A DNA stretch of 64,000 nucleotides from Nanobdellota archaeon (GTDB taxonomy: Archaea > Nanobdellota > Nanobdellia > Pacearchaeales > GW2011-AR1), in contig JAUSIK010000016.1 of NCBI GenBank assembly GCA_030648155.1, forward strand, positions 81,944 to 145,943. The letters are read 5' to 3'. A program made the translations under genes and the position numbers. A model generated the notes under the pieces. It saw only the letters and a list, made by a program, of their open reading frames with translations. It did no database searches and was not told the origin of the DNA. How positions within the stretch are numbered: position 1 is the first letter of the stretch; every line of letters begins with the position of its first letter. Below, piece by piece: positions 3,325-12,438 of this stretch.

Positions 3325-3404
3325 AAAGCTATTAGTCTGCTTTCATATTTAAAGTTTTTTTATATAAGTTTAAAGCCTAAATTAATTAGTATTCTGCATT
3401 AGAG

Positions 3405-3417
3405 AAAGGTTTATAAT
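3405..3417 (+). promoter_or_regulatory. BRE/TATA-like promoter motif (aaaggtttataat) upstream of the SNF2 gene
   Basis: Matches the recurrent window consensus aaAGnTTTAWAWA. It lies in the divergent intergenic region 3325-3462. Confidence 0.4.
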
Positions 3418-3462
3418 CGAAATTCTAATTTAATTACTCTATCTAAATTTTTTTAAGAAGAG

Positions 3463-5256
3463 ATGAAAATAACAATAAACGAAGTTTTTTCTGAAGACGA
3501 GAGTATTTTAGACAAAGTCGAAAAGAAAGAGTTCGAGTCAGGAGAGGTTTTGAAGCTTAGAGTAGATGCTGAAGAAATGTCTAAAGAGGCTGAAGTTAAT
3601 CAACTCATTTCATATAACTCTATAAAGAAAAATTTAGAATATGAGCTCCCGCATCAGAGAGAAGGAGCAATTAAAATTCTAAGGGATATGAACTGCATGG
3701 CATTATTAGCCGATGAAGTAGGCTTGGGAAAGACTATTACGACAGGGATGATAATCAAGGAGTGCATTGTAAGGGGACTTGTAAAAAGAGTGCTGATATT
3801 AACTCCGCCATCACTTGTTGATCAATGGGCTCAAGAGTTAAAATTTAAATTTGATTTAGATTTTGAGATTATTGAAAATAAAAATCAATGGGACAAAATA
3901 AACTTTGCTATAGCATCCATAGATAGAGTTAAAGGATATGATGAGGCACAAGGAAAATTCAAGCATGATAAAGTTCATGAAATTGAGTGGGATTTATTGA
4001 TCGTTGATGAAGCCCACAAACTAAAAGATAGGGATACAGTCAGATGGAGATTTGTTGATAAAATTCCTAAAAAAAGATTTTTAATTTTAACTGCAACGCC
4101 ATTTCAAAATGACCTGCTTGAACTTTATAGTTTACTAAATCTTTTGAAAAGAGGACATCTAGGAACTCTTAAGGAATTTAAGAAGAAATTTTTGTTTAGA
4201 GGAAATAAAAGATATCCTTTAAACCCTCATGAATTAAAAGATAAATTACAGGAAGTCATGGTAAGAAGAAGGAGAGATGAAACAGGGATTGACTATAAAA
4301 AGAGAATTCCTAGAATTGTTGCAGTTGAGATGTCAAAAGAAGAGGAGGAAATTTATAAGGATATAACCGAACTATTACAAACTAAATATTTCTCTGCGAA
4401 GGGTGAAGAAATTAGAGGGAAGCTAATTATTTATTCTCTTCTTCCTAAAATTACAAGTTCTTCTAAATCGGCAATAGAATCTTTGACTAAAATTGTAAAC
4501 AATCCCAAATATCACGATGGTACTAGAGAATTCGCCAATATGATATTAAATAAATGTTTGAATCTAAAAAAGGATTCTAAAATTGAAGCATTAACCGAAA
4601 TTGTTAAAAAAATATACTCTGAAGATAGGGATGCTAAAATATTGATATATACTAGACATCCTACTACGGCCAAATATATAATTGAGAAGTTAAGCACTCT
4701 GGGATTAAAACTTATTGATTTTATTGGTGGGATGAGCCGAGAAGAAAAATTAGAAAAAATAAAAGAGTTTAAAGCGGATGTAAATATTATGGTAAGCACT
4801 GAAACTGGAGCTGAAGGACTAAATTTCCAATTTTGCAGTAATTTGATAAATTATGATCTGCCATGGAATCCAATGGCTGTAGAGCAAAGAATTGGAAGGG
4901 TCGACCGAATAGGTCAGAAAAAAGACATGTACATTTATAGTTTAGCAAAAAAAAATACAATGGAAGAGCATGTAGTTGATTTAATAATTAATAAAATGTG
5001 CTGTATAGGACTTGTAATTGGTGAATTACCGATTATCTTGTTTAATCTTGGCCTTGATAGCAAAGATGAATCTGGACTAAGTAAAATTGAAGAGATGCTT
5101 TTGAATGCCTTTATAGATTCTAAAAATAATTTGGAAAAATTTGCAAAGGATGTTATTAGAATCAAAGACTTACTTGACAAGGGAATAGAAGAATATATGA
5201 AAACCAAAGATAATAATTCAGCTTTATTAGACGATGGAAAACAAGGAACTAATTGA
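3463..5256 (+). CDS. SNF2/SWI2-family helicase (minimal, 597 aa)
   Basis: Motif I LLADEVGLGKT, motif II LLIVDEAHKLK, motif III LTATPFQN, and C-terminal lobe motifs STETGAEGLNFQ and YDLPWNPMAVEQRIGRVDRIGQ. Confidence 0.9.
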   Translation: MKITINEVFSEDESILDKVEKKEFESGEVLKLRVDAEEMSKEAEVNQLISYNSIKKNLEYELPHQREGAIKILRDMNCMALLADEVGLGKTITTGMIIKECIVRGLVKRVLILTPPSLVDQWAQELKFKFDLDFEIIENKNQWDKINFAIASIDRVKGYDEAQGKFKHDKVHEIEWDLLIVDEAHKLKDRDTVRWRFVDKIPKKRFLILTATPFQNDLLELYSLLNLLKRGHLGTLKEFKKKFLFRGNKRYPLNPHELKDKLQEVMVRRRRDETGIDYKKRIPRIVAVEMSKEEEEIYKDITELLQTKYFSAKGEEIRGKLIIYSLLPKITSSSKSAIESLTKIVNNPKYHDGTREFANMILNKCLNLKKDSKIEALTEIVKKIYSEDRDAKILIYTRHPTTAKYIIEKLSTLGLKLIDFIGGMSREEKLEKIKEFKADVNIMVSTETGAEGLNFQFCSNLINYDLPWNPMAVEQRIGRVDRIGQKKDMYIYSLAKKNTMEEHVVDLIINKMCCIGLVIGELPIILFNLGLDSKDESGLSKIEEMLLNAFIDSKNNLEKFAKDVIRIKDLLDKGIEEYMKTKDNNSALLDDGKQGTN

Positions 5257-6787
5257 CATTAAAGATTTTACTTTGGATTTTTTTAAGAACCTGGATTGTG
5301 AGGTTAAAATGGATAAGGGTATATTTATCATAAATAAAATTCCTGTTGACTTTGAAGAGTATTATGGGAAAAAAGGACCTTATACATTGGTATTTGATCA
5401 AAATGTTGAAGGGGGAGAGTTTGTGGGTGCTGGGAGTACTTTGCTTAAGAGCATGCAAGATTACTTGGATAGAAAAGGCCAAACTTCCTTATTGAGGCTA
5501 GCAATAGAAATTGATCCAGTAAAAGAAGTCTCGCAAAGAATAAAACTTGGAAATTGCAAAATTGAACAAGTTATACAAAAGAAAGAATATAATGTTCTAA
5601 AAAGATTTACTTTTTCATCAATATTTCAATACTTAAATGAAAAAGAAAGATTTCTAAATTCAATTTATGTTGATCGAGGCAATATTGCAGAATTTGATAT
5701 TTCTAAATACTCTAGTGTAGAAGGCAGAAAGGATGATGTTAATATAGGGGATATAAAAAGGGACCATCAAATTGCTAAAGATGAATTAAAAAAAATTATT
5801 TTAGGAATTACTGAAAAAATTGGAGCTAAAATAGAAGAGAAATTAGAAAAAGAAATTGTTAGAATTAAAGATCATTATGGAAAACAAATTAAAGAAAAAG
5901 AAGAGCAAATAGGGGGTATAGAAAGACAATTAAAAAAAGCAGAAGAACAATTTAATAAAACTGCAGAAAATGAGAAAAAACAAATTCAAGATAAAATTGA
6001 GAAGCTAAAAAAAGATATTGAAATTATTAAAAATTCAGATTTAATTAATAAAACCAAAAAAGAAGAAGATTTTTTAATTAATGATGAAATAAGAAAGCAT
6101 GGATTAAATATTTCTAACAAATTAATAAATACAACTATAGTTTATTATCCGACTTTTATATTGGATGTGAATGTGATAAACAGCCAAAGCAAAGGAAACT
6201 TTGAAGTAAGATATAATCCCCATATACAATCATTAAGTTTTCCTTTTTGCAGGGCGTGCAATAGAGAAATTATGGATGTTTATTTATGCTCATCCGGGCA
6301 TGCTTCGTGTAGGTTGTGCTTAATGAAATGTTTATGCTGCAGCAAGGAATATTGCAAGAATTGCGTTGATAAAAAGTGCTCATCTTGCTTTAGAGATATA
6401 TGCAAGAAATGCTATTTAAGATGCAATGGATGCGGAAAAGGTTTTTGTGAAATGCATATAAGAAAAATAAATGACAATCAACATGCCTGTTTATCCTGCT
6501 TTGCCTCTTGTATTGGGTGCAGTAAGGCCGGGATCAAAAAGAATTTCTTTAAATGTCCGTCATGTGGAAGCGAGGCCTGTGAAAACTGTTCTAGAAAGAT
6601 TTTTGTAAAAGCTGGAATAAAAATGGCATGCCCAAGATGCACTCAAAAGTGCGATGCATGTAAAAAATTATATCAGAAATCTGAATATTATAAATTAAGG
6701 ACCTGTGAATGCGATTCATGCAATTCATTGACTAGATGCTTATCCTGCAAAAGAGTTTTATGTAAAAGAGTCAGGAAACAGTTTTGA
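5234..6787 (+). CDS. SNF2-associated protein: N-terminal globular region, K/E-rich coiled coil, C-terminal multi-CxxC (zinc-ribbon-rich) domain
   Basis: ORF track, 517 aa. The start overlaps the SNF2 stop by 23 nt. Residues ~175-295 are a K/E heptad-like region. I counted 35 Cys in the last ~180 residues, mostly as CxxC pairs. Confidence 0.7.
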   Translation: MENKELIDIKDFTLDFFKNLDCEVKMDKGIFIINKIPVDFEEYYGKKGPYTLVFDQNVEGGEFVGAGSTLLKSMQDYLDRKGQTSLLRLAIEIDPVKEVSQRIKLGNCKIEQVIQKKEYNVLKRFTFSSIFQYLNEKERFLNSIYVDRGNIAEFDISKYSSVEGRKDDVNIGDIKRDHQIAKDELKKIILGITEKIGAKIEEKLEKEIVRIKDHYGKQIKEKEEQIGGIERQLKKAEEQFNKTAENEKKQIQDKIEKLKKDIEIIKNSDLINKTKKEEDFLINDEIRKHGLNISNKLINTTIVYYPTFILDVNVINSQSKGNFEVRYNPHIQSLSFPFCRACNREIMDVYLCSSGHASCRLCLMKCLCCSKEYCKNCVDKKCSSCFRDICKKCYLRCNGCGKGFCEMHIRKINDNQHACLSCFASCIGCSKAGIKKNFFKCPSCGSEACENCSRKIFVKAGIKMACPRCTQKCDACKKLYQKSEYYKLRTCECDSCNSLTRCLSCKRVLCKRVRKQF

Positions 6788-6831: not shown

Positions 6832-7638
6832 ATGGATTATGACGGAGTAATACAGGAAAGAAATTTAGAAAATATTGCTTCAAATAATGGGTTTAAGTTC
6901 AGTGATACATTCTTTCCTTATACTTCTGGAAAAATCGGACCTGAATTTGTAAATGCTGAAGTGGTCTGCCATAATAGAGATCACCATGATAGTGCAATTG
7001 AAGACCTAGCCAGATTAATAAGAAATAAAATTTCAGCTGAAAAATACGATTTTATTTCCGGAGGGGAAAGCAGAGATTGGGTTTTTTCCTTTCAAACTGC
7101 ACAAAAATTAGGAAAAGCTCACGTAATGCTTTACAAAGACGGAAAATATATTGGTGGACCTTTAAAAAATAAAAAAATAATCCATGTAGCAGATATTAAT
7201 AATGAAGGAAGCTCTATAGAAAAACATTGGAAACCAATAATCGAAAAAGAAGGGGGAAAAATTGAGACGGTATTCTTCTATGTTGAAAAATGCGATGAAG
7301 GCAAGCAAGTAATGAAAAGAATAGGATTAGAATCGTATGCTTTAGTTTATTTAGATGAAAATTCTTGGAAGTATCTTTTAGATAGAGAGTATATTACTAA
7401 AGAAAATTATAAATCTATATCAAAAAGAAAAAAAGACCCTGAAAAATGGGCTAGGGAGATGCTTTTATCTGAAAAGGGAATTGAAAGACTAAAGGAATTG
7501 CTAGATGGAAATAATAAAAACAGGGATAGAGCTTTAAAAGTTTTAGAGAGAGGTTATCCAGATTTAAAGGAAGAAATACTGGCAAGATTGAAAAATAAAA
7601 ACGGTGGAAAGATAGAAAGTCTTATTAAGATGAAATAA
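6832..7638 (+). CDS. Type I phosphoribosyltransferase (orotate PRTase-like) with a helical C-terminal extension
   Basis: PRPP-loop-like IIHVADINNEGSS and an upstream SGGESRDW. About 75 aa of K/E-rich tail follow. Family-level call. Confidence 0.55.
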   Translation: MDYDGVIQERNLENIASNNGFKFSDTFFPYTSGKIGPEFVNAEVVCHNRDHHDSAIEDLARLIRNKISAEKYDFISGGESRDWVFSFQTAQKLGKAHVMLYKDGKYIGGPLKNKKIIHVADINNEGSSIEKHWKPIIEKEGGKIETVFFYVEKCDEGKQVMKRIGLESYALVYLDENSWKYLLDREYITKENYKSISKRKKDPEKWAREMLLSEKGIERLKELLDGNNKNRDRALKVLERGYPDLKEEILARLKNKNGGKIESLIKMK

Positions 7639-7957: not shown

Positions 7958-7977
7958 CTTTTTTGGACTATTTTTCT

Positions 7978-8601
7978 ATGAGAGAGATAGAATTACAGCC
8001 TGAGCAAATACTTGTACCTGGAGAGTATAAACTAGGAAACGAATCTATTTTGAAGATTTACTATAGAATTTTTGATAGAGATCATGGAAGAGATTTGCCT
8101 CCTGTTATTACAGCGAGAGCAGATTTTATAAGCGAATCTCAAAGGCAAGAAAGATTTGAAAGAAAAATTGAGATGCTTAATAGGCAGATAAAAGAATTTC
8201 GGGCTGTTGATGCTGGATACTTTCTTCCTCTTGTTAAAAAAGATTTTGAGACTTTTTCTGTGCTCATTAAAAAATCCCCATATTATCTTTTAGATGGCAA
8301 TCATAGATCTGCGGCAGCGACTTTAACACATAATCCAATTAGAGCACTGGAAATAGAAAATGATGATGATATAAGCAAAATTGAAGAAATGGTTGAAAAA
8401 GGAGGGGTATTTGATTTCAAATTTAAAGAAAAAGATCTTTATACTTTATTGTCTTCATTTGAAGATTATTGTTTGGGAGAAGAGCATGCCATAGGAAGAG
8501 GCAAAATTGATAAAGTTAAATCAGTAAGAGAGAGGGTTGATGCATTGGTTTCTAATGGGGATTTACCCCAATATATAATAGATAAATATAAAGCGAAATA
8601 G
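7978..8601 (+). CDS. Hypothetical protein with a ParB/sulfiredoxin-like DGNHR motif
   Basis: The ORF track frame (7963..8601) begins with TTG inside the promoter spacing, so I prefer ATG 7978 (MREIELQ...). The LLDGNHRSAAA motif resembles the ParB/Srx fold. Weak call. Confidence 0.45.
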   Translation: MREIELQPEQILVPGEYKLGNESILKIYYRIFDRDHGRDLPPVITARADFISESQRQERFERKIEMLNRQIKEFRAVDAGYFLPLVKKDFETFSVLIKKSPYYLLDGNHRSAAATLTHNPIRALEIENDDDISKIEEMVEKGGVFDFKFKEKDLYTLLSSFEDYCLGEEHAIGRGKIDKVKSVRERVDALVSNGDLPQYIIDKYKAK

Positions 8602-9627: not shown

Positions 9628-12438
9628 ATGTACAATACACAACAATCTGAAAAGGAAATACTAGATTTCTGGGATAAGCATAAAATTTTTGACAAACTTA
9701 GAAAAAAGAATAGGGGAAATAAAAAATGGAGTTTTATTGACGGTCCTATAACTGCAAATAATCCTATGGGGGTACATCACGCATGGGGAAGAACATACAA
9801 GGACTTATTTCAGAGATTTAAAGCAATGCAAGGTTTTGATCAAAGATATCAAAATGGATTTGATTGCCAGGGATTATGGGTAGAAAGGGAGGAAGAAAAA
9901 GAACTTGGATTAGAATTTAAGGAGGACATTGAAAAATTTGGGATCCTTAATTTTGTTAAGGCTTGTAGAAAGAGGGTAGAAAAATTTTCAAAGATACAAC
10001 AAGATCAGTCGATAAAACTAGGCCAATGGATGGATTGGACTCATAGTTATTATACGATGTCAGATAATAACAATCTGCATAATTGGCATTTATTGAAGAC
10101 TTATTATGATAAAGGATGGTTGTATAAGGGAAAGGATGCGGTTCCTTGGTGTTGGAGATGCGGAACGGCGAGCTCTAAGCACGATATTGTTACTGAAGGC
10201 TACAAAGAAGTAACCCATACAGCATTATTCATGCAGTTTCCATTAAAGGATAACCCAGATGAATATTTTTTAATATTTACTACAACTCCCTGGACAGTTC
10301 CAGCGAATGTGGCCATTGCTGTCAATGCAAAAATAGAATATGCAAAGGTTGAGAATAATGGGGTCAAATATTGGATTGCAAAAAAAAGAGTTGCTGAATT
10401 AGAAGGGGAATACAAAATATTAGAAACTAAGAAAGGAAGCAGTTTGAAAGACTTAGAATATGTGATGCCTTATAGTGACTTAGAAGTTCAAAGCAAATCT
10501 CCCCATAAAGTAGTCTTGTGGGATTTAGCCTCTGAAGAAGAGGGAACTGGAATAGTGCATATTGCTCCAGGGTGCGGAACTGAAGATTTTCAGCTAGGTA
10601 AAAAAGAAAAATTGCCCTCGATTTCACCATTGACAGAAGCCGGTATATACCAGGAAGGTTATGGTGAATTTAGCTTAAGAAAATATACTGAAGTTAATAA
10701 AAAAGTACTAGAAGATCTCGAACAAAGAAGATTTGTCTACAAGACCAAACCTTACAAGCATAGGTATCCTCATTGTTGGAGATGCGGAAAGGAATTGGTT
10801 TTTAGACTTGTTGACGAATGGTACATAAAGAGTTCTGAAATGAGGAAAAAACTTATCAGTGAAAATAAAAAAATCGAATGGTATCCAGATTACGGAAAAA
10901 TTCGACAAGAAGAATGGTTCAAGAATATGGGAGACTGGCTCATTTCAAGAAAAAGATATTGGGGTTTGCCTTTGCCAATTTGGGAGTGTCCGTGTGGAGA
11001 GACTGAAGTATTTGGCAGTCTCGAAGAATTAAAGAAAAAAGCGATAGATAAAAAGAAAATAGAGAATTTGCCAGAAATACATAGGCCTTGGATAGACGAA
11101 ATTAAAATTAAATGCTCCAAATGTGGAAAAGAAGCATCAAGAGTCAAAGATGTAGGAGATGCCTGGCTCGACGCGGGAATTGTGCCATTTTCTACTTTGA
11201 ACTACCTGAATGATAAAAAAAACTGGGGGGAGTGGTTTCCTGCTGATTTCATATGTGAAAATATGCCTGGACAATATAGGGGATGGTTTAATGCTCTTAT
11301 GTGGGCAAGTGTTTCATTAACTGGAAAAGCACCATTCAAATCAATTTTAGGATATGAATCATTAAAAGATGAGAAGGGAGAGGAAATGCATAAGAGCAAA
11401 GGCAACACTATATGGTTTGACGAGGCTGTAGAAAAAATAGGGGCTGATCCTATGAGATTGTTATATGTTCTACAAAATCCATCACAAGAAATGAGGTTTG
11501 GATTTAATACTGCAAATGAACCTAAAAATAACCTAAATATACTATATAATATTAGTAAATTAATTAATAAACCTGATAAATCTGGAAAAGAGAGTTATGA
11601 AGACAAATGGATATTAAGCAGATTTAATTCTTTAATAAAAAAAGTTACAGAAGAATTAGAAAACCTGCATCCCCATATTGCAAGCCGGGAACTGCAGAAT
11701 TTTTGGCTTGGAGATTTAAGTAGAAAATATATACAACTAGCAAGAGATAGATTAGCTAATGGCAATCCTGCGGTTAACAAAACATTAATGGAAATATATA
11801 TTGGATTAATTAAAATGTCGGCTCCATTGATTCCTTTTATTACAGAAAAAATATGGCAGGAAATGCGAACGAAGAATATTGTTAAAGAAGAATCTGTGCA
11901 CTTGACAGAATGGCCAACGTTTGAAAAGAAAAAAATTAATAAGAAACTTGAGGAAGAATTTAAACACGTCTTTGAAATTATTGAGAAAGGATTATTCGCA
12001 AGAGATAAAGTTCAGATAGGTTTAAAGTGGCCTCTTGGAAAAGCAGTAATAAACTTAACTAAAGAAATGAAATTATCTAAAGAGGCGGAAGAAATTATAA
12101 TGAGACAATTAAACGTAAAAAAGTTAGAACTAAAAACAAGTAGTGAAACTGGTGTGGTATTAGATACAACTATGACGAAAGAATTAGAAGCGGAGGGTTA
12201 CGCGAGAGAGTTTGCAAGAAATGTTCAGGCAATAAGAAAGAAAGAAGGTTTACAAAAAGGGGATTTTATAGACTTAAAAGTGACTGCAAGCAAGGAAATA
12301 GCCTCGATGTTAATTAAACATGCCGCTTTTATAAAGGAACGAGTAAATGCAAAAAAAATTGAATTTGTCGACGATAAAACCAAAAAAACTGGAGAATTTA
12401 CTATTAAAGAAAACAAAATAAGCATACTTTTTTCGTAA
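9628..12438 (+). CDS. ileS: Isoleucyl-tRNA synthetase
   Basis: HIGH-type PMGVHHAWGR, KMSKS-type KMHKSKGN, Zn knuckles WCWRCGT and HCWRCGK, and WLISRKRYWGLPLPIWEC, which is typical of IleRS rather than ValRS or LeuRS. Confidence 0.8.
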   Translation: MYNTQQSEKEILDFWDKHKIFDKLRKKNRGNKKWSFIDGPITANNPMGVHHAWGRTYKDLFQRFKAMQGFDQRYQNGFDCQGLWVEREEEKELGLEFKEDIEKFGILNFVKACRKRVEKFSKIQQDQSIKLGQWMDWTHSYYTMSDNNNLHNWHLLKTYYDKGWLYKGKDAVPWCWRCGTASSKHDIVTEGYKEVTHTALFMQFPLKDNPDEYFLIFTTTPWTVPANVAIAVNAKIEYAKVENNGVKYWIAKKRVAELEGEYKILETKKGSSLKDLEYVMPYSDLEVQSKSPHKVVLWDLASEEEGTGIVHIAPGCGTEDFQLGKKEKLPSISPLTEAGIYQEGYGEFSLRKYTEVNKKVLEDLEQRRFVYKTKPYKHRYPHCWRCGKELVFRLVDEWYIKSSEMRKKLISENKKIEWYPDYGKIRQEEWFKNMGDWLISRKRYWGLPLPIWECPCGETEVFGSLEELKKKAIDKKKIENLPEIHRPWIDEIKIKCSKCGKEASRVKDVGDAWLDAGIVPFSTLNYLNDKKNWGEWFPADFICENMPGQYRGWFNALMWASVSLTGKAPFKSILGYESLKDEKGEEMHKSKGNTIWFDEAVEKIGADPMRLLYVLQNPSQEMRFGFNTANEPKNNLNILYNISKLINKPDKSGKESYEDKWILSRFNSLIKKVTEELENLHPHIASRELQNFWLGDLSRKYIQLARDRLANGNPAVNKTLMEIYIGLIKMSAPLIPFITEKIWQEMRTKNIVKEESVHLTEWPTFEKKKINKKLEEEFKHVFEIIEKGLFARDKVQIGLKWPLGKAVINLTKEMKLSKEAEEIIMRQLNVKKLELKTSSETGVVLDTTMTKELEAEGYAREFARNVQAIRKKEGLQKGDFIDLKVTASKEIASMLIKHAAFIKERVNAKKIEFVDDKTKKTGEFTIKENKISILFS

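Follow-up and report, generated by a model that had tools for sequence, protein, structure and literature searches.

A candidate archaeal YqhH-YqhG module pairs a minimal SNF2 ATPase with a zinc-ribbon partner protein

Two overlapping genes at positions 3463-6787 of the window, a 64,000-nucleotide (nt) stretch of a Nanobdellota archaeon contig (JAUSIK010000016.1), encode an SNF2-type ATPase and a cysteine-rich partner protein. Our results suggest, with a probability that we put at roughly 60%, that this locus is the DPANN-archaeal, zinc-ribbon-bearing form of the YqhH-YqhG two-gene module of Bacillales, consisting of a translocase and a non-enzymatic targeting adaptor. Both yqhH and yqhG have names in a model organism but no assigned function, and here they represent one branch of a module that extends across Bacteria and Archaea. 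The core of the partner is conserved and has no solved structural relative, and zinc-ribbon arrays of very different length have been gained on it repeatedly.

The upstream gene (positions 3463-5256, forward strand, as are all features of the pair) encodes a 597-amino-acid (aa) protein, P0001, identified as a YqhH-like minimal SNF2 ATPase from its open reading frame (ORF), its Pfam domains and BLAST matches to partner-linked SNF2s. Pfam recognizes SNF2-rel_dom at residues 76-332 (1.7e-36) and Helicase_C at 373-484 (5.2e-21) and nothing else, and the catalytic motifs are intact, including motif I (GLGKT, 87-91), motif II (DEAH, 182-185) and motif VI (QRIGRVDRIGQ, 475-485). The SNF2 core (61-520) lies between an acidic N-terminal tail (1-60) and an acidic C-terminal tail (521-597), each with an isoelectric point (pI) of 4.6. 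P0001 shares 39% identity with Bacillus YqhH over 477 aa (E 1e-104), and a tblastn search of plasmid records with the SNF2 returned as its top match a Brevibacillus laterosporus gene (37% identity, E 3e-111) that adjoins gcvT-gcvPA-gcvPB and is followed by a gene annotated as 'YqhG family protein'. The same gcvT-side locus, with overlapping yqhH and yqhG, is present on a chromosome-sized replicon of Bacillus. Identity to the partner-linked SNF2s of Bacillus, Brevibacillus, haloarchaea, Nostoc and Zipacnadia ranges from 34 to 39% (E 1e-91 to 1e-116), with 34-37% for those from haloarchaeal and cyanobacterial plasmids, Ca. Zipacnadia and a further uncultured lineage; the other SNF2 encoded in the window's genome matches P0001 only at 2e-7. 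By sequence comparison, we show that the product of the upstream gene is a YqhH-subfamily ATPase of the SNF2 type, predicted to be catalytically intact.

The downstream gene (5234-6787) encodes a 517-aa partner, P0002, as read from the ORF map and its translation. Its ATG lies 23 nt ahead of the SNF2 TGA, within ...GACGATGGAAAACAAGGAACTAATTGA, and the N termini of partner homologues align from this Met1; the resulting 23-nt overlap (5234-5256) would support translational coupling. Both ORFs are exactly where a sequence-only reading of this DNA had placed them, and that reading's description of an SNF2 with all helicase motifs and no accessory domains fits the domain searches as well. The GC content of the two genes (about 0.30) equals that of their flanks.

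The same reading had noted a loose resemblance of the partner's N terminus to YqhG proteins, and this resemblance reflects genuine remote homology. The partner-family member P0228, which matches P0002 at 2e-29 by BLASTP, exceeds the Pfam cut-off for YqhG (PF11079) at 36 bits against 25, and two further members (P0276 and P0278) give YqhG-specific sub-threshold Pfam matches. We built a superfamily profile from the N-terminal 335 residues of 11 diverse members of the partner family, with 2000 shuffles as a control. This profile matches Brevibacillus YqhG at 4.8e-17 and Bacillus YqhG at 6.3e-7, compared to 0.2 for the best shuffle; these reference proteins were verified by their PF11079 scores (419 bits for Bacillus and 248 bits for Brevibacillus). 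The haloarchaeal partners match at 1e-19 to 1e-26 and the cyanobacterial partners at 3e-17. A profile limited to the N domain still matches the Brevibacillus and Bacillus proteins in register (4.9e-4 and 1.9e-3; best shuffle 0.27), and a profile made from DPANN sequences alone matches a haloarchaeal partner at 2.5e-16 and Brevibacillus YqhG at 1.1e-3, with no match to Bacillus YqhG. Two word-indexed protein searches toward YqhG, one with the N-part profile and one with the N-terminal part of P0228, yielded closer relatives alone. The E. coli gene called 'yqhG' is an unrelated gene. Together these comparisons show that the downstream coupled gene encodes a predicted remote homologue of YqhG without a recognizable catalytic motif, a relationship that is established through intermediates and is not one of Pfam membership. 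The sequence-only reading knew of no characterized system with this partner architecture. The pair is indeed functionally uncharacterized, but it belongs to the named yqhH-yqhG pair (PF11079), so profile searches do assign it to a described, though uncharacterized, set of genes.

The two genes also occur together across genomes. We identified 124 partner homologues in a 90%-clustered protein collection, all of them unnamed or 'hypothetical' and all from Pacearchaeota/Nanoarchaeota-type DPANN assemblies, and 369 representative clusters in a 50%-clustered library. For each of the five divergent homologues looked up, the gene immediately upstream and in the same orientation encodes an SNF2 of 593-615 aa; the two genes overlap by 8-11 nt or are 1-46 nt apart, and the remaining neighbours of these five pairs all differ and are of housekeeping type. 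A census of the window's GTDB family with one genome per genus (121 genomes) found an SNF2 orthologue (58-73% identity) in 20 genomes and the partner in the same 20; in a 21st partner-bearing genome (G395) the SNF2 search reported no orthologue. Adjacency to a partner holds for 21 of the 23 SNF2 copies. Three genomes hold two paralogous pairs (G415 C1 and C4; G449 C4 and C3; G482 C11 and C40), each SNF2 with its own partner, one partner being about 460 aa long with zinc ribbons and the other about 330 aa without a Cys array; the SNF2s of these pairs show 58-62% identity to that of the window. On the haloarchaeal and cyanobacterial plasmids, in Ca. Zipacnadia and in the further uncultured lineage, the gene after each partner-linked SNF2 encodes an unannotated protein (346-1095 aa) that matches the superfamily profile. 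A downstream partner of this kind accompanies every YqhH-like SNF2 that we examined, whether from Bacillales, haloarchaea, cyanobacteria, Ca. Zipacnadia or DPANN. The junction overlaps by 35 nt in Bacillus sp. N5-665 and by 8 nt in haloarchaea, and the conservation of tight junctions in these lineages and in DPANN upholds the earlier view of the overlap as a co-expression signal, just as the gene-neighbourhood census that it proposed finds a partner with the YqhH-like SNF2 subfamily throughout. The two genes have been gained, kept and lost together, and their pairing is far beyond chance.

In two genomes the pair is parted by inserted DNA, with both genes open. One insertion of 2.5 kb (L029, G458:C16:13000-20000) carries four opposite-strand ORFs without Pfam matches, and one of 5.1 kb (L030, G415:C1:113000-122000) carries two same-strand surface-protein genes, one with Laminin_G_3 and the other with GLUG and a pilin N-terminus. 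We considered the inserted genes as effectors and rejected them, as they are instead surface proteins or unassigned ORFs. Two partner genes with in-frame stops (G425:C14:6602-7878 and G435:C10:2187-2873) stand beside intact-looking SNF2 genes, which decay or assembly error could explain. In Ca. Zipacnadia (L018:1649-4049) a 305-aa ORF without a Pfam match and a 499-aa AAA ATPase gene lie directly upstream on the same strand, and the operon may be larger there. At two other loci (L019 and L020, 2901-3455) two HicB-like (UPF0150) antitoxin-type genes lie between the SNF2 and the YqhG-like partner, and a radical SAM/SPASM gene follows the partner.

An AlphaFold2 model of the partner built on 20 homologues (mean predicted local distance difference test score, pLDDT, 85) displays the three parts proposed from the sequence, an N-terminal globular region, a coiled coil and a Cys-rich part, and adds an extra long beta hairpin (292-328). 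Based on the models and the N-domain-only profile, residues 1-170 (positions 5234-5743) form a YqhG-like alpha/beta domain, whose fold spans residues 1-165 in the model and holds a very long beta hairpin (109-147) with about 25 residues per strand. The model and the alignment place a K/E-rich antiparallel helical hairpin at residues 171-290 (5744-6103; 175-288 in the model), with conserved R210, H214-Y215 and E221; Y215 occupies one of only three superfamily-wide invariant columns (G69, Y224 and E289 in P0228 numbering). The extra beta hairpin, supported by the alignment as well as the models, falls in residues 291-335 (6104-6238) and bears the conserved motif LNIxNKLINTTIIYYP, and a profile of this segment matches a Nostoc plasmid partner at 5e-9. 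The rest of the protein, residues 336-517 with the stop codon (6239-6787), is by sequence and model a basic array of CxxC zinc knuckles (339-517) containing 35 Cys, 15 CxxC motifs and 3 His, with a net charge of +24 and a pI of 9.1; the family median net charge is +12.

The partner gave no match in Pfam, NCBIfam or PADLOC. A natural short form of 332 aa (P0116; model pLDDT 88) shares its core but lacks the zinc part, and Foldseek searches of the Protein Data Bank (PDB) with the full-length and short-form models found no match at E <= 1e-3. The structural likenesses of the Cys array are weak (LIM, PHD and RBR fingers in Foldseek against PDB, E >= 0.013), a profile search of PDB sequences gave for this part only weak RING-, LIM- and FYVE-like noise, and matches in the viral structure library BFVD, at TM-scores of 0.1-0.16, reflect Cys arrays or coiled coils. 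Conserved positions in the superfamily alignment are mainly hydrophobic, and we saw no nuclease-like motif there.

The zinc tail varies widely between lineages. CxxC motifs are missing (count of 0) from the Bacillus and Brevibacillus partners, from those on cyanobacterial plasmids and from the DPANN short form. Partners on three haloarchaeal plasmids have 2, many DPANN proteins have 6-8 and the window protein has 15; the count reaches 32 in Ca. Zipacnadia and 38 in Halorhabdus tiamatea. The H. tiamatea partner, on pHTIA (L028:7575-10862), is 1095 aa long with 115 Cys and a repeat every ~45 residues, and a restriction endonuclease gene follows it. Because the partners of Bacillus and of cyanobacterial plasmids and the short DPANN paralogue do without the tail, the core function would not need it, and the tail is probably an add-on that tunes target choice. 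Across the same genome pairs the partner diverges about twice as fast as the motor (33-36% against 60-66% identity). With no Pfam, NCBIfam or PADLOC domain, hydrophobic conserved positions, a basic tail and fast evolution, the partner is best read as a putative adaptor rather than an enzyme.

Compared side by side, the archaeal and Bacillales pairs share an SNF2 subfamily (37-39% identity, ~560-600 aa, no accessory domains), gene order and strand, an overlapping junction (35 nt in Bacillus sp. N5-665 versus 23 nt in the window) and a partner plan made of an N-terminal alpha/beta domain, a helical segment with a conserved R..HY motif and a terminal beta-strand motif. They differ in that the window pair is archaeal (DPANN), has a partner unrecognized by PF11079 and is scattered rather than at a fixed chromosomal locus. 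The helical hairpin of the window partner is much longer (~115 aa), and its 180-aa basic array of 15 CxxC has no counterpart in Bacillus YqhG, which has 271 aa and no CxxC.

Based on these features, we predict that the module most likely works as a double-stranded DNA translocase whose targeting or gating depends on a non-enzymatic partner that binds nucleic acid. In line with the sequence-only reading, which considered a complex probable, the SNF2 and its partner would form a complex. The partner would dock on the motor through its YqhG-like alpha/beta core and the beta hairpins there, and the helical hairpin may serve as a rigid arm or a dimerization element. The basic multi-zinc-ribbon tail could bind nucleic acid, or possibly a DNA-bound protein, and binding by the tail would place or gate the ATP-driven translocase on double-stranded DNA, allowing it to strip or remodel complexes of protein and DNA; a stalled polymerase or a factor bound at a lesion could be examples. 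The YqhH protein of B. thuringiensis is an ATPase whose knockout raises sensitivity to ultraviolet light (PMC10054049), and B. subtilis YqhH has been described as a poorly characterized HepA/RapA-like RNA-polymerase-associated translocase (PMC7385302). Neither Bacillus-type YqhG nor the archaeal pair was the subject of any paper that our literature search found. That a 3.3-kb accessory module is kept in about one sixth of genera despite the very small genomes of DPANN suggests that it has a selectable function, either in maintaining the genome or in conflicts with mobile elements. The module raises the question of why a minimal SNF2 motor requires a dedicated non-enzymatic partner, for which B. 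subtilis genetics and the Haloferax plasmid versions offer tractable systems.

Several observations weigh against reading the locus as a YqhH-YqhG module with an adaptor-guided translocase. Even at E <= 1, PF11079 misses P0002 and all other members of a set of 89 family representatives except P0228, the only one to pass its cut-off, and it finds nothing at E <= 10 in a six-frame search of the whole genome. An hhalign comparison of one Bacillus YqhG with the DPANN alignment gave no significant score; since neither gives a direct match, the homology between partner and YqhG rests on intermediates. The pair is scattered and not core: it is present in 20 of 121 genera of the family and virtually absent from 373 other genomes sampled from the phylum, and convincing matches in a 401-genome phylum sample are limited to the window's family. 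With FtsZ as the yardstick of relatedness, the pair is present in 2 of the 18 closest genera, and SNF2 identity is uncorrelated with FtsZ identity (rho 0.03, n=18). Such a distribution fits an accessory function. The remodelling target proposed for the motor is purely inferred. Finally, haloarchaeal plasmid relatives stand divergent beside DUF499 (HmaC-like), HNH and DUF1156 genes, or beside restriction or PD-(D/E)XK nucleases.

This last observation also favours an accessory anti-virus or anti-mobile-element module, in which the zinc-ribbon partner would sense foreign nucleic acid and the SNF2 would act on it alone or feed another system. We regard such a role as possible but tentative. The scattered distribution, the lack of correlation between SNF2 and FtsZ identity, the paralogous pairs in three genomes and the fast evolution and variable tail length of the partner would suit it, as would the cyanobacterial relatives, which lie on mobilizable plasmids amid toxin-antitoxin genes, and the best PADLOC matches of the SNF2, which are BrxH and DrmD. 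These are partial matches to the core, however, and SNF2 scores for all defence families are far under the curated cut-offs. Pfam, NCBIfam and PADLOC identify no effector domain, such as a nuclease or a methylase, in either protein, and the partners of all lineages give PADLOC nothing past coiled-coil noise. At the window and seven other DPANN loci the neighbours are housekeeping or surface-protein genes, and we saw no defence genes among them; the Bacillales orthologues sit at a fixed chromosomal site beside gcvT. Searches of IMG/VR viral contigs and phage records, and a plasmid tblastn with the N-terminal part of the partner, found no relatives.

Comparison with individual defence systems gave a similar picture. 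The window SNF2 has its ATPase core in common with DISARM DrmD, BREX BrxHI, Hma HmaA, Zorya ZorD and Dpd DpdE, but those proteins are 870-1300 aa long with extra domains, and their systems have no YqhG-like partner. The window contains no companion gene of any of these systems. The sequence-only reading had pointed to DrmD and ZorD; both prove to be generic matches to the SNF2 core, at 222 and 216 bits for DrmD (cut-offs 610 and 950) and 79.5 bits for ZorD (cut-off 1500), with none of the DISARM companion genes (drmA, drmB, drmC and a methylase) and no MotA/B-like genes among the neighbours. The PADLOC run that it suggested assigned no known defence system, with partial matches for the SNF2 and none for the partner. 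The BrxHI match is partial (233 bits in two stretches), and there is no pglX, pglZ or brxC within 10 kb, the rest of the genome not having been searched for pglZ. For Hma, DUF499 and DUF1156 were not found in the 1.25-Mb genome (88.8% complete), and are present beside haloarchaeal relatives.

On three haloarchaeal plasmids (L023, L025 and L026) the pair stands divergent beside a gene for a 1070-aa DUF499 (HmaC-like) protein, with an HNH endonuclease gene further upstream in L025 and L026 and a DUF1156 gene also in L026. These DUF499-linked loci may represent an Hma-like system that uses the pair as its helicase module.

A further, rather unlikely proposal treats the CxxC array as a modular, expandable nucleic-acid reader (0 to ~19 zinc ribbons depending on lineage) that would give a generic SNF2 translocase its target specificity, like CDCA7 with HELLS, and that in DPANN and on haloarchaeal plasmids could serve effector-less exclusion of viruses or plasmids by stripping replication or transcription machinery. 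In the eukaryotic HELLS/DDM1-CDCA7 system a minimal SNF2 motor depends on a separate DNA-reading zinc-finger protein with CXXC motifs, by which it is recruited or activated (bioRxiv 10.1101/2023.01.30.526367). The likeness is one of functional analogy only, as homology between the partners was neither detected nor is claimed, and the substrate there is the nucleosome.

We also considered that the pair is RapA split into two chains, with the SNF2 as motor core and the partner replacing the flanking domains and binding RNA polymerase for recycling after termination, which we judge quite unlikely. E. coli RapA (HepA; a Swi2/Snf2 RNA-polymerase recycling ATPase; PDB 6BOG, 4S20 and 7M8E) is likewise an SNF2 of prokaryotes, one that takes a protein off DNA, and it is the closest solved structure to the ATPase core (127 bits). 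The SNF2 aligns to it from about residue 97 and so lacks the RapA N-terminal domain, and YqhH has been called 'HepA' in the literature (PMC7385302). Yet the lead of RapA over SSO1653 (115 bits) and ISWI (107 bits) is slight, and the NCBIfam RapA score of 195 bits, against a cut-off of 576, is under that of DrmD; no RapA_C or extra Pfam domain was found. RapA is a single 968-aa chain with its own N- and C-terminal domains, to which the window partner has no similarity in sequence or fold: partner profiles score E. coli RapA 641-968 below shuffled controls, and Foldseek of both partner models against PDB returned no RapA chain in the top 50. Archaeal and bacterial RNA polymerases differ, moreover, and a scattered distribution would be odd for a polymerase recycling factor. 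That the two genes are mere neighbours with independent functions, the partner being a general zinc-ribbon or coiled-coil structural protein, is very improbable, for although the two insertions part them with both genes open, co-occurrence and adjacency are strict in DPANN, haloarchaea, cyanobacteria, Bacillales and Zipacnadia and each paralogous SNF2 retains its own partner.

Around the pair, the window encodes a P-type ATPase, an ATP-grasp protein, an unassigned 268-aa ORF and an aminoacyl-tRNA synthetase. The adjoining ATP-grasp gene is divergent, and the AT-rich intergenic stretch 5' of the SNF2 gene (3325-3462, forward strand) is, from the sequence and the ORF map, the presumed promoter region of the pair. 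Two co-directional ORFs lie 3' of it, at 6832-7638 (268 aa) and 7963-8601 (212 aa); neither has a Pfam match at E <= 1e-3, and they are not kept beside the pair in other genomes. Positions 9628-12438 encode a 936-aa class I aminoacyl-tRNA synthetase, which we dropped as a yardstick of relatedness as its identities are bimodal across the genera of the family (about 20 at 65-72%, the rest at 35-43%). This bimodality suggests that two xenologous forms of the synthetase circulate in the window's GTDB family.

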